Program-made: the position numbers and the translations under genes
Source of the DNA: a virus
Taxonomy: Duplodnaviria; Heunggongvirae; Uroviricota; Caudoviricetes
DNA: 51,994 nucleotides
IMG/VR virus record: IMGVR_UViG_3300045988_149344
Direction: 5' to 3' (one strand)
Shown here: positions 2,085 to 12,583 of the stretch, piece by piece
How the letters are laid out: every line of letters starts with the position of its first letter
Numbering within the stretch: the stretch's first letter is position 1
The notes under the pieces: generated by a model
The model's database searches: none
What the model saw: the letters and a program-made list of their open reading frames with translations, nothing else
What the model was told of the DNA's origin: nothing

Positions 2085-3514
2085 TCCTCCTCATACGAAA
2101 TATTAAAGGTGGAGTTTTCTGTATCCAGATAAACGAAATCGTAAAAGCCGTTGGACTCATTCCACTCGACAAATTCCAGATAAAAGTCGCGGAAATAACC
2201 CAGCGTTTCGATAAATGCCCAAACGTCTTTTTTCTTGATTAGGATGTACTTGCCGACACGGTTCGGATCAAAGAAAGTTGAGTCACGCCCAAATTTTGTT
2301 TCCAGTGCCGACTTCAGCTCATCAGTCACGTTCTCAATGGTCAGGCTTGCCGATATCCGCCCAGTGATAGTGATCTTAAAGGGGAGTTTTCTGACCTCTT
2401 TATACGAGAATTTCTTGTTCAACTCATTCGGCACCTTCTTAAAGGCAGCCAGGATCACTTCTTCAAGCTCTGACTGGCTTTTGTTTGGATGCCATCCTGA
2501 AATAAATATCTTATTGATATTCCGAACATTATAAGCACCATCTAATTTCTCTTGCTGGCCTTCGCCCCATGCCTTTACCCAGGACAGTCCCGGGATGTTA
2601 CGCACCAAAAAATACGTATAGTCCCCGCCCCATACGACCTGATCATCATAGGCAAGGTAATATTGTGCACGATTACGTGTGATCTCCGTTGTTTCGGCAT
2701 CGGTACCTGCGGTTATGGGTGTCGTTGTCTTAACTGAAATCAAATTAGCTAAATTAGCCGCAGAATCGACAGGCGTCAGGTTTTGGCCAGCAACCAGGGT
2801 TATATCTCCGTTGGTGCACCATACCTTAAGTGTAATGGTCGAGCCTTCTGGCGGTATTTGCCCAATTAGCCCATCACCGAATCGAACCCCCAACTGCTCG
2901 GATGGCTTATAAAACTCAACGTAGACCTGGCTTTTACTACCGGCTAACCGGAACATAGTGCTGGAAGACCACTGCGTGGTCTTACCATCGGTCGTCACGA
3001 ATACTTCCAGCTTATAGCAGACAGCAGTGAGAGCCTTTGATAACACGACTTCCAGAAATTCTTTGGCTGCCGTAACGGTATATGTCACCTCCTGGATTTC
3101 CAACTGTGCCACTTCTACCGTACCGGTGCCGTCAACCAACCTGCATACATCCATAGTCATGTAAGGGTACTGGTCGTCAGATATTAAAGGCATATTTTTG
3201 GGGATTACCGCTGGGGCATCTTCACTTGTGGCGGTGATCTCAATCATCCCCGATGACGGTGTTGGCTTGGTACCAACGTAACTATTCGTTTCTGCCGCTG
3301 CCAGGATAGAGGAACGCCGCGTCGCGGTCGATATAAAGCCTTCAGCCAGCGCCGCATCGGCATACTGAAAGCACCTGTAGACAATCTGGGTAATAAACAA
3401 TGTCAGCATCGAGACAAATTGAGAGCCGACAAACTTCGACCAGAATGAATCTTTCTCGACAAGCTCTTCAAACTCTGCACGAATACTGTCTTTAGTCGGT
3501 GTTGTTTTACTCAT
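2081..3514 (-). CDS. Putative baseplate J-like protein (477 aa)
   Basis: Follows the gp25-like gene with a 4-nt overlap; size and position match baseplate J / T4 gp6-like proteins; assigned by synteny only. Confidence 0.4.
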   Translation of the reverse strand: MSKTTPTKDSIRAEFEELVEKDSFWSKFVGSQFVSMLTLFITQIVYRCFQYADAALAEGFISTATRRSSILAAAETNSYVGTKPTPSSGMIEITATSEDAPAVIPKNMPLISDDQYPYMTMDVCRLVDGTGTVEVAQLEIQEVTYTVTAAKEFLEVVLSKALTAVCYKLEVFVTTDGKTTQWSSSTMFRLAGSKSQVYVEFYKPSEQLGVRFGDGLIGQIPPEGSTITLKVWCTNGDITLVAGQNLTPVDSAANLANLISVKTTTPITAGTDAETTEITRNRAQYYLAYDDQVVWGGDYTYFLVRNIPGLSWVKAWGEGQQEKLDGAYNVRNINKIFISGWHPNKSQSELEEVILAAFKKVPNELNKKFSYKEVRKLPFKITITGRISASLTIENVTDELKSALETKFGRDSTFFDPNRVGKYILIKKKDVWAFIETLGYFRDFYLEFVEWNESNGFYDFVYLDTENSTFNISYEEE

Positions 3515-9905: not shown

Positions 9906-10940
9906 TCAAGCCTTAAGAGGCTTTGTGTATGTTCGTGTAATCCATCCAGTAATAAACTCGTCCCCTGATTTAACCTGCACGAAAAGCCATTGGCGATCTT
10001 TTTTATCTAAAACAGCCACTATAGTATTTTTGCCAATGCATTCAATCACCTCACTATTTATAGAAGGACTGACGTGTAATCTTACGTTCTCACCAGTTAT
10101 AAAACGAAAACCATTGAGATCTTCCCAACTAATTTCTTTGTTTTCTTTAATTAATTGTTGTTTTGATATTGGTTTATCCTCAAACAGAGATATAAAATAT
10201 GATTCTGCCTTGTGTATTCCCAGCAAGGTTTTCTCTTTTCCGTAATCAATAAAAGCACCAAACACAACTTGAGAAAATATAACCATTAGTAACCATTGCA
10301 GTGGATAAGGAAGCTCTTTAAATGAATCAACAAACTTTGAGCTAGGTTTATTTAATCCTTTATTTTGAACATTACTTTTGGTGTGTGATGTTTCAGTAGC
10401 ACCTTCAGCATAAGCCTGCGCAATAGATGAAATCCCCTGCTCTATTATTTGATGTAATGAAGCATTTCTTGTTCTAGCATAGTGATCTAGTACTTTCTTT
10501 ATGTCTTGGCTTACATCTATTTTATAACTTGCACTTTGTTGTAATTCTTTAAGTATCGCTTGCATGTTATTTAAACCAGCTTGCTTATTAAGCACCTCAA
10601 GCTGTTTTCGTAATGGCATAGCTATTTCGGCCTGTTTCCTTAGCATTTGAATATATCTATTTGCATCATGAGGGAAAAGAGCCTGAGTCTGTTTCTGTAA
10701 AATCGCGATATGTTCACGATACTTGCTGCCTATTCCAGCCAAGTTCGGTATACTAGCCAATTGTTTTCGAAGAGAGTTACTAATTACAGCTTGTCTATTC
10801 AATCTTGGCATATTTTGAAAAGAATGTTTTTCTATTCCTAATTGTTTTTGCAAGATCGCTACGTGATCTTTGTATGATGGAATGAGCACTGACTGTTTAT
10901 ACAGCAACTTCAACTCATTAGAATTAGTAATTTTTGTCAT
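9906..10940 (-). CDS. Membrane-anchored protein with N-terminal coiled-coil repeats, one TM helix and a C-terminal SH3b-like domain (344 aa)
   Basis: AT-rich ORF; repeated ILQKQ/LRKQ segments; hydrophobic stretch LQWLLMVIFSQVVFGAFI; C-terminal RFITGENVRLHV...GWI resembles bacterial SH3 domains. Confidence 0.45.
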   Translation of the reverse strand: MTKITNSNELKLLYKQSVLIPSYKDHVAILQKQLGIEKHSFQNMPRLNRQAVISNSLRKQLASIPNLAGIGSKYREHIAILQKQTQALFPHDANRYIQMLRKQAEIAMPLRKQLEVLNKQAGLNNMQAILKELQQSASYKIDVSQDIKKVLDHYARTRNASLHQIIEQGISSIAQAYAEGATETSHTKSNVQNKGLNKPSSKFVDSFKELPYPLQWLLMVIFSQVVFGAFIDYGKEKTLLGIHKAESYFISLFEDKPISKQQLIKENKEISWEDLNGFRFITGENVRLHVSPSINSEVIECIGKNTIVAVLDKKDRQWLFVQVKSGDEFITGWITRTYTKPLKA

Positions 10941-11014
10941 ATTATTCCATTTCTATAATAGAATATTACGCAACCAATGTTTTATTGATTGCGTTAATCT
11001 TTAACACAGAAAGA

Positions 11015-11491
11015 TCATTTGCCTCGTTTAATACATCCATCCATTTTGGCTTGTTGATACAACTTACTTAGCCCAGAAAGAGGGAATGTAGCAATTTTTT
11101 CATTATCAACATAAGCATCAATCATATTAGCATTTGAATCTGCTGCATCTTGCCAAAAGGCATACCACCAAGAATCTCCAACCATTGATCCAAGATTGCT
11201 AAAAGGATATTGATCACCATCTATAGTTAATACTATTTTATTCTTGTCAGCATTATACTCTTTTTTATTATTCGACGAACTTAGCAACAAGCCTAAACTA
11301 CCTGCACTATCTGGTGAACCATACATGAATCCCATATCACATAAAAAACTTATCTTATCACCATTATGATTATGGATTGTATATTCTCTCCCCCCTCTCT
11401 CTTCAATTACATTCCATTGTAGAGGATCAATTTTTGCAAATGTTCCTGCTGAAACTAACGATACAAATAATAAAAACCATCTCATATTCAT
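11015..11491 (-). CDS. Secreted/periplasmic protein with signal peptide (158 aa)
   Basis: N-terminus MNMRWFLLFVSLVSAGTFA is a typical Sec signal peptide; AT-rich; two Cys residues in the mature part. Confidence 0.45.
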   Translation of the reverse strand: MNMRWFLLFVSLVSAGTFAKIDPLQWNVIEERGGREYTIHNHNGDKISFLCDMGFMYGSPDSAGSLGLLLSSSNNKKEYNADKNKIVLTIDGDQYPFSNLGSMVGDSWWYAFWQDAADSNANMIDAYVDNEKIATFPLSGLSKLYQQAKMDGCIKRGK

Positions 11492-11513
11492 TCTTTTCGC
11501 TTCTTATCTGTAA

Positions 11514-11864
11514 TTATTCTGCAATATCATTTGCCCATTGCACGGCAGCAAAATGAGTACCCAAACCACTCAGGAAAGCAATTACCCCCAAAACAATACT
11601 TGCTGCTGTTGATTCAAACAAAGTACCAATACTATAGCCAATAGCTCCCCATACTAAGCTAAATACAATCATCAATGGTATTGCTAGAAATTTTATTCTT
11701 AAACTAAAAATCAGTCCAAGAAAAGAACCGCCAAAGGCCCACCATGATTTAGACATTAAACCTATCAGTATTGACAGAATTCCTATTTCAATAAAGAGAA
11801 TATTAGATTGCTCTTCATTGAATTTCGCATTTGTTACACCTTTACGAACATGTTCAGATGACAT
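11514..11864 (-). CDS. Small multi-pass inner-membrane protein (116 aa)
   Basis: Three to four hydrophobic helices; AGGAG ribosome binding site upstream of ATG at 11864-11862; first gene of an AT-rich three-gene unit. Confidence 0.45.
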   Translation of the reverse strand: MSSEHVRKGVTNAKFNEEQSNILFIEIGILSILIGLMSKSWWAFGGSFLGLIFSLRIKFLAIPLMIVFSLVWGAIGYSIGTLFESTAASIVLGVIAFLSGLGTHFAAVQWANDIAE

Positions 11865-11913
11865 GATTAACTATCTCCTGCCACAGATAAAACGCCTTAA
11901 AATAACATTTTGT

Positions 11914-11942
11914 AGCATAAAGTTTCACCATGCAATGGTCAA
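11914..11942 (-). promoter_or_regulatory. Sigma70-like promoter for the AT-rich module (-35 TTGACC, 17-bp spacer, -10 TATGCT)
   Basis: Read on the minus strand: TTGACC (11942-11937), 17 nt, TATGCT (11919-11914), about 45 nt upstream of the 116-aa gene RBS. Confidence 0.35.
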
Positions 11943-11953
11943 AATCTTTGACC
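11937..11953. promoter_or_regulatory. Perfect 17-bp palindrome GGTCAAA-ATC-TTTGACC overlapping the -35 box
   Basis: Exact inverted repeat; each half contains a TTGACC hexamer, one per strand, in the divergent region between the AT-rich module and immI. Confidence 0.4.
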
Positions 11954-12010
11954 CATATCAATTAAACTCATACATTTTAGTTACCAGAGAAATAATTTAC
12001 ATGGTTGCAA

Positions 12011-12027
12011 GTTGCTCTAATTATTTT
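12011..12027 (+). promoter_or_regulatory. C1 repressor operator-like site (14/17 match), candidate Op51
   Basis: GTTGCTCTAATTATTTT versus consensus ATTGCTCTAATAAATTT; located upstream of the icd-ant region. Confidence 0.4.
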
Positions 12028-12099
12028 ATTTTTTTAGCTTCATATGCTACATTAACTTGCTTGCGTGCTAATGCATTTTCGGTTTATCCTAAACAGGCA

Positions 12100-12176
12100 T
12101 CTTAGTAACACGGATGCCGGGATTGGAACCCCGGATAATGCAAAAGGCGACATAGACGCCAAAAGCGTCTTTTTTT
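12100..12176 (+). ncRNA. Candidate c4-like antisense RNA of immI (boundaries uncertain)
   Basis: About 75-nt structured segment upstream of icd: hairpin CCGGGATTGGAACCCCGG, then hairpin AGACGC-CAAAA-GCGTCT plus T6 (12154-12176). The loop sequence GATTGGAACC recurs at 12305-12314, and GTTCCAACC, complementary to GGTTGGAAC and one mismatch from the loop complement, lies at 12276-12284. Confidence 0.3.
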
Positions 12177-12361
12177 GTGTCATGCCATCGCACAACCATA
12201 CGTAGCACATAGCTCCGAGATCAATGGTAGTGCTGGCTGGGCTGCCGAAAGGCAGGCCGGTTCCCTTTTGCGCCGGTAGTTCCAACCCAGTCAGTGCTAC
12301 CGCCATTGAGATTGGAACCTCACGCGGTAGCTCCTTAAATTAGCAAAAGGAGGCTGCCATT

Positions 12362-12583
12362 GTGGCTACTATCCCTACCCCTACTCATCCTGAATTTATC
12401 TGGCGCTTTTACTCCTGCCAAAAACACCACTATCACTTCGTTATCGCAGCAACAGAAGACGAAGCACGCTCTCAATTGCCTGATGGCCCCTGCATTTTTA
12501 CTGCCCGTTTTTCAACTAACTCGCGCAATTCACTTAGTTACTGGAGCCTCCCCTTCTCTGCCGACGTTCAGGGGGGTTTATGA
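12362..12583 (+). CDS. icd: Icd-like small protein (73 aa), GTG start, overlaps ant start
   Basis: 73-codon ORF ending 4 nt after the ant ATG (translational coupling), as in P1 immI. Confidence 0.5.
   Translation: MATIPTPTHPEFIWRFYSCQKHHYHFVIAATEDEARSQLPDGPCIFTARFSTNSRNSLSYWSLPFSADVQGGL

Follow-up and report, generated by a model that had tools for sequence, protein, structure and literature searches.

An inverted repeat beside the immI cassette of a P1-like phage-plasmid as the possible footprint of two back-to-back sigma-70 promoters

The window analysed here, a 51,994-nucleotide stretch of Caudoviricetes DNA (IMG/VR record IMGVR_UViG_3300045988_149344), is a region of a P1-like (IncY) phage-plasmid: IncY plasmids, among them E. 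coli pWP5-S18-ESBL-08_2 (AP022163), match positions 11000-12400 without a difference, and rightward from ~12390 the DNA shows 95-96% identity to icd/ant of P1, P7 and relatives. To the left lies a module with a GC content of 32-37% (46-50% in the flanks), which bears out its description as AT-rich in an earlier reading made from the letters alone (the sequence-only reading). Its genes are on the minus strand. The first (11514-11864) encodes a 116-aa protein with 3-4 hydrophobic segments and is preceded by a GGAGA ribosome-binding site (11878-11874); the second (11015-11491) encodes a protein of 158 aa whose N-terminal segment is hydrophobic and signal-like; and the third (9906-10940) encodes one of 344 aa, which has a single transmembrane segment (213-234) and, at its C-terminus, an SH3 domain. 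The module occupies the position of P1 simA/simB/simC, between immI and LPsit/pmgC/tub, with LPsit conserved in the window at ~9803-9780, and no similarity was found between its proteins and P1 SimB and SimC. The sim locus is a hot spot of replacement and exchange in P1-like elements (PMC6906374). The inverted repeat considered below lies in lineage-specific junction DNA, in which the AT-rich module has taken the place of the P1 sim genes.

Homologues of the 116-aa gene were found in no phages, those in IMG/VR were all identical, and those on Anoxybacillus and Moraxella plasmids lay in unrelated contexts and were of no use for comparing upstream DNA. Between the 158-aa and 344-aa genes stands a terminator-like hairpin of 11 pairs (10968-10994, minus strand), close to where the homology between the two alleles described below ends, which suggests that the first two genes form an exchangeable core unit. 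P1 SimA (52 aa; simA at segment positions 2413-2571) matches residues 1-40 of a 212-aa simA-domain protein (gene at 2565-3203 of the LR890336 segment) at 93% identity, so that P1 simA appears to be what is left, at the 5' end, of a longer gene. Some P1-like plasmids still have that gene whole, as the first of four in their version of the module. Sub-threshold matches of the 344-aa protein were to Pfam RHH_1 (E = 0.014-0.1) and to the Arc-like family PHROG 582 (E = 0.004), its single-sequence AlphaFold model was unusable (pLDDT 37.6), and a search for a relative in the PDB found none. By eye, a local pattern (YKIDVSQDIKKVLDHYARTRNASLHQIIEQGI) at residues ~120-180 of this protein fits strand-helix-helix.

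On the plus strand, immI opens with a C1-operator-like site (GTTGCTCTAATTATTTT; 12011-12027) that has 3 mismatches to the consensus and is the counterpart of P1 Op51/Oc4; as the sequence-only reading had stated, it lies 58 bp from the repeat. Names of P1 promoters follow the annotation of GenBank AF234172 (PsimA, which is predicted there; Op51/Oc4; P51a = P2c4; P51b = P1c4). The counterpart of P51a (12025-12053) has an extended -10, TGcTACATT, with the operator over its -35 position. A cassette-proximal promoter, TTGCGT-N18-TATCCT (12061-12090), corresponds to P51b and to the isrK promoter and sits 7 nt upstream of the first base of an isrK-like small RNA identified with Rfam (12097-12175), whose intrinsic terminator consists of a stem (12154-12170) and a run of T after it. 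The C4 antisense RNA gene follows at 12220-12307 (Rfam, 76.7 bits; gathering score 45). The isrK match scored 55.1 bits against a gathering score of 50, overlaps a weak match to the c4-a1b1 target family, and connects the leader and terminator of P1 immI with the IsrK small-RNA system of Gifsy-1.

Related immI cassettes occur as a second copy adjoining pacB in JL22 and RCS47, and a further cassette is present in D6. Homology to the JL22 and RCS47 cassettes begins exactly at the operator and that to D6 further right; the P51a-like and proximal promoters are conserved in JL22 and RCS47, and the proximal promoter also in D6. Since these cassettes start at the operator or to the right of it and carry their own promoters, the repeat stands outside a self-contained immI cassette. 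In JL22 (2493-3100 of the segment) and RCS47, this second set of operator, isrK-like RNA, C4 and antirepressor lies between pacB and c1, which gives each phage two immI-type modules of different C4 specificity. The C4 loop and two target copies (window positions 12120-12135, 12280-12292 and 12305-12320) co-vary between cassettes, the window and allele B (below) having targets TTGGAAC with C4 GTTCCAA, and JL22, RCS47 and D6 having targets TTGAGAC with C4 GTCTCAA. This covariation has the appearance of a compensatory change in immI (heteroimmunity) specificity, on a cassette that is otherwise almost identical.

The repeat itself, GGTCAAAATCTTTGACC, is located at 11937-11953 of the 52-kb window. 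It had been called an exact 17-bp palindrome, which overstates its symmetry: the reverse complement mismatches the original at three central bases, which are not self-complementary, so that only the 7-bp arms GGTCAAA (11937-11943) and TTTGACC (11947-11953) pair up, around a 3-nt spacer, ATC. Such 7+3+7 repeats are common in the window and this one is not rare; there are 8 perfect ones against 3.5 ± 1.5 in shuffles, and 33 inverted repeats with 0-5 nt spacers against 21 ± 5.5. Counts of TTGACC and TTTGACC in the window equal expectation, with no enrichment of TTGACC, and a search for the repeat elsewhere in the genome returned no second copy in the 52-kb window at up to 3 mismatches. As single-stranded DNA its hairpin has a folding energy of -5.3 kcal/mol (z = -2.4). 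Several assignments were tried and rejected. An intrinsic terminator is contradicted by the A/T-rich stem, by the hairpin energy, by the lack of a T run and by the lack of a call in the terminator scan. The P1 C1 operator is an asymmetric 17-mer (ATTGCTCTAATAAATTT), and none of its 9 operator-like sites in the window overlaps the repeat, the nearest being that at 12011-12027. P1 late (Lpa-dependent) promoters are recognised by a -10 hexamer with a conserved box at -22 (AAATGACTA in LPsit), and no such box was seen by eye upstream of either -10 described below. A by-eye check for the CRP and IHF consensus at the repeat gave no match.

Each half of the repeat is a TTGACC -35 hexamer, one per strand, as the sequence-only reading had recognised and our consensus scan agrees. 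A sigma-70 promoter should have hexamers near TTGACA and TATAAT, a spacer of 16-18 nt, and a -10 with A as its second and T as its sixth base. The minus-strand TTGACC (11942-11937) lies 17 bp from TATGCT (11919-11914), again as had been read, and this candidate for the promoter of the accessory module (11914-11942) matches 9/12 consensus positions, with a predicted start at ~11907. The plus-strand hexamer does face c4/icd/ant as proposed; the earlier reading lacked its matching -10, TACATT, which completes a second predicted promoter facing immI (TTGACC-N17-TACATT, 11948-11976, plus strand; 9/12 consensus positions), with a start predicted at ~11983, upstream of the C1 operator. Both candidates have hexamers and spacers of the sigma-70 type, and both are correctly placed and oriented relative to their transcription unit. 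The two -35 hexamers, 5 bp apart, account for 12 of the 14 arm bases. Because 51 bp separate the two -10 hexamers and ~77 bp the predicted starts, a bidirectional promoter with a shared symmetric -10 is ruled out. A small ORF downstream of the plus-strand candidate (ATG at 12001) was set aside, its ATG being missing from allele B in the alignment.

When every position of the window was scored with a sigma-70 weight matrix, which was built from general consensus frequencies instead of a curated set and is thus rough enough to serve as a ranking device only, the plus-strand candidate ranked first (12.1) and the minus-strand candidate second (11.8) among 519,590 window candidates. The same matrix placed P51b (13.4) and P51a (7.3) as the top two plus-strand matches in the P1 intergenic region; it thus recovers annotated P1 promoters, and the scores of 12.1 and 11.8 fall within the range of a known strong P1 promoter. 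Sites matching at least 9/12 positions numbered 38 in the window against 69 ± 8 in dinucleotide-preserving shuffles, about half the shuffle frequency, which is consistent with selection against spurious promoters. The repeat is the sole back-to-back pair of such sites in the real window; 42% of shuffled windows also hold one, so the pairing by itself proves nothing. The module is divergent from immI and therefore needs a promoter within 11865-12010, where the minus-strand candidate is by far the best and would give a leader of ~43 nt to the ATG at 11864. A weaker minus-strand alternative, GTGAAA with an 18-nt spacer and the extended -10 TGtTATTTT (11928-11899), scored 6.3, a value equalled or exceeded by ~187 window sites.

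We searched for alleles of this intergenic segment in phages (near and distant), plasmids, E. coli genomes, IMG/VR, GTDB genomes and metagenomes, and found it only in P1-like plasmids, namely in 52 PLSDB records, 66/5,426 complete E. coli genomes, 11 IMG/VR contigs and 1 metagenome contig; five GTDB matches were chance matches in unrelated genomes. It occurs as two alleles plus a simA-type context. Allele A is that of the window. Allele B is about equally common, being found in about half of the P1-like plasmids with the region (27/52 PLSDB plasmids and 4/11 viral contigs); its first two module genes are intact and its third, the 344-aa gene, is replaced. The allele B version of the repeat, GGTCAAAGTCTTTGATC, differs at one arm base (TTTGACC to TTTGATC; C to T at 11952) and at one spacer base, and its symmetry is broken. 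The minus-strand -10 of this allele is TGTGCT in place of TATGCT (T to C at window position 11918), which loses the key A at position 2 and lowers the score to 6.6; with the same two genes intact, allele B would have to use another promoter or express them weakly. The plus-strand candidate is retained as TTGATC-N17-TACATT, altered at position 5 of the -35 only, and the alternative minus-strand promoter is identical in both alleles. In the third context (LR890336, CP033848 and a metagenome contig) the gene upstream of the 116-aa one encodes a simA-domain protein of 212 aa; window homology ends at ~11910, so the repeat is absent there, and the extended -10 TGtTATTTT falls inside the 46-nt leader that the window shares with these plasmids.

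Divergence between alleles A and B jumps from ~2.5% to 26% exactly in the repeat spacer, at position 11944, where a hypervariable patch (11944-12011) has 18 differences in 68 nt against less than 5% in its flanks. The repeat has diverged as fast as the DNA around it (2/17 positions changed against 22/215 in the rest of the intergenic region, p = 0.75), and the lower rate of change in the plus-strand hexamers (1/12 against 17/56 elsewhere in the patch) is not significant (p = 0.11). The patch starts in the repeat spacer and stops at the first base of the C1 operator; relaxed constraint and a small mosaic insert are candidate causes. The C-to-T change of allele B (segment positions 2584-2589, corresponding to window 11948-11953) creates a GATC (Dam) site in the TTGATC -35. 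P1-type phages encode their own Dam methylase, and Dam methylation could affect the plus-strand promoter in allele B.

We consider it about an even chance (roughly 50%) that the repeat is the footprint of two back-to-back sigma-70 promoters, whose two -35 hexamers generate the symmetry, and that it is no protein-binding dyad. The left arm would be the -35 of a minus-strand promoter that transcribes the accessory module, with its 116-aa membrane protein, 158-aa secreted-type protein and 344-aa TM-SH3 protein, and the right arm would be the -35 of a plus-strand promoter from which polymerase would pass the C1 operator and go on to transcribe the isrK-like RNA, c4, icd and ant. The symmetry would then be a by-product of two identical near-consensus hexamers 5 bp apart, and C1 bound at ~+27 to +43 would probably impede the plus-strand transcript. 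The geometry of the sequence, the scores, the comparison of the alleles and the limits of the cassettes are observations; promoter activity is a prediction from sequence, and firing of either promoter in vivo is inferred. The correct 17-nt spacing on both strands, the first and second ranks in a window otherwise depleted of promoter-like sites, the survival of the plus-strand hexamers and spacing within a patch of 26% divergence, and the position of the minus-strand candidate before a divergent module, with a short leader and the GGAGA site, all argue for the pair. Its weight is reduced by the TGTGCT of allele B, by the p value of 0.11 for the plus-strand hexamers, by the frequency of such pairs in shuffled windows, by the uncurated frequencies behind the matrix, and by the absence of such an upstream promoter from immI of P1, JL22, RCS47 and D6, whose own promoters lie at the operator or downstream of it.

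That last point lends some plausibility to a less probable explanation, in which the minus-strand promoter alone is real, the plus-strand match and the symmetry are fortuitous, and transcription of immI starts only at the promoters of its cassette, at and downstream of the C1 operator. It agrees with the start of JL22 and RCS47 homology at the operator and of D6 homology further right, with P51a-like or isrK-type promoters of their own; with P1, which has no annotated plus-strand promoter upstream of Op51; and with the location of the plus-strand candidate in the 68-nt patch where the region varies most. The same candidate, however, has the best promoter score in the window and keeps its -10 and spacing in allele B with a single -35 change, and we estimate that, given the repeat, a -10 at 16-18 nt spacing would arise by chance about 1 time in 8. 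It is more doubtful that neither promoter matters, the module being expressed from the extended -10 promoter at 11928-11899 and the repeat being a chance product of junction DNA. The identity of that element in both alleles, its place in the leader shared with plasmids that carry a simA-domain gene upstream, the abundance of 7+3+7 repeats in the window and the lack of a usable TATGCT in allele B are as this explanation would have them, but the element scores modestly, and the two best promoter matches of the window, both inside the intergenic region, would be left unused. Least favoured here is a structural or recombination feature (a hairpin or a module-exchange breakpoint) with no role in transcription, which we hold to be highly improbable. 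The jump in divergence at 11944 and the known exchange at the sim locus fit a breakpoint, but the hairpin is weak and has no T run, the other mosaic boundary, that of the simA-type plasmids, lies at ~11910 and away from the repeat, and the coincidence concerns a single boundary.

The sequence-only reading had instead proposed a dimeric regulator that binds the palindrome and couples both divergent units independently of C1. As an operator, the repeat would let such a protein occlude both -35 hexamers and co-regulate the module and immI, which we regard as very unlikely. Dyad symmetry is present (7-bp arms and a 3-nt spacer, imperfect as a 17-mer), the arm centres are about one helical turn apart, a bound protein would cover both hexamers, and the 344-aa protein has weak ribbon-helix-helix-like matches at residues ~120-175. 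A shared dimeric regulator acting independently of C1 nevertheless predicts conserved symmetry, which is contradicted by allele B, as common as allele A, and the repeat shows no excess conservation. The genes adjoining it encode membrane or secreted-type proteins with no convincing regulator among them, no further site is present in the 52 kb, the repeat is unlike the C1 operator, and the -35 hexamers already explain most arm bases. As to the 344-aa protein, its ribbon-helix-helix matches fall below curated thresholds and its structure model is uninformative, and gene and repeat do not travel together: LR890336 and CP033848 have the gene without the repeat, and allele B has a degenerate repeat without the gene. 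Beyond symmetry nothing speaks for an operator, the sub-threshold matches being the only lead, and the regulator hypothesis is left with no support. The odds are slim that a dimeric protein, whether host-encoded or the 344-aa protein, truly switches the envelope module together with an extra, C1-independent immI promoter. If it were the 344-aa protein, its weak ribbon-helix-helix-like segment would be real and would belong to a membrane-anchored regulator, and the degenerate repeat of allele B, where this gene is missing, would mark the loss of a redundant site.

Most likely the feature is an ordinary one, divergent sigma-70 promoters being routine in the AT-rich junctions of mosaic phages. 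An active promoter pair would supply the expression signal of an uncharacterised module that stands in for the superimmunity (sim) genes across a widespread lineage, the P1-like phage-plasmids with the segment being present in ~1% of complete E. coli genomes. If the plus-strand promoter in particular fires, immI would have an extra upstream input whose transcript would run through the C1 operator; its strongest promoter would then lie upstream of that operator, where that of P1 lies downstream, and synthesis of the antirepressor and of C4 RNA could depend more on C1. The pair would be useful for annotation and engineering of these elements and opens no new question.

The E. coli RutR box (TTGACCAnnTGGTCAA) is an example of a dyad operator of a dimeric repressor. 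It shares with the repeat the words TTGACC and GGTCAA in inverted arrangement, but its half-sites are reversed relative to the GGTCAA...TTGACC order of the window and differ in spacing. The bidirectional promoters described by Warman et al. have overlapping symmetric -10 elements and starts 7-25 bp apart, mostly 18 bp, and are enriched in horizontally acquired AT-rich DNA (bioRxiv 10.1101/2020.01.31.928960). Divergent transcription from symmetry in promoter elements is common to those promoters and to the predicted pair, whereas the core promoters in the window are separate, with the symmetry in the -35 elements and the predicted starts ~77 bp apart. In the Salmonella Gifsy-1 IsrK-orf45-anrP locus, as in the window, an isrK-family RNA with its terminator is followed by a C4-type RNA and antirepressor genes; there a single promoter, that of isrK, drives both the small RNA and, by read-through, the antirepressor operon, and an upstream divergent promoter pair or C1 operator is not reported (PMC4825925), so that the comparison concerns only the DNA downstream of the repeat.

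The sim-c4 region of P1 differs from that of the window to the left of the operator, where there is no sequence homology, unrelated genes replace the sim genes, and P1 has no inverted repeat at this position. The strong TTGACC promoter of P1 (P51b) lies downstream of the operator, whereas the strong candidate of the window lies upstream, and the cassette-proximal promoter of the window (TTGCGT-N18-TATCCT) is weak, unlike P51b. Common to both are the position between tail genes (tub, pmgC) with LPsit and c4/icd/ant, the divergent layout of an AT-rich accessory unit and immI on opposite strands, a C1 operator followed by an extended -10 (TGcTATCTT in P1, TGcTACATT in the window) and a strong promoter, predicted in the window, whose TTGACC -35 feeds immI.
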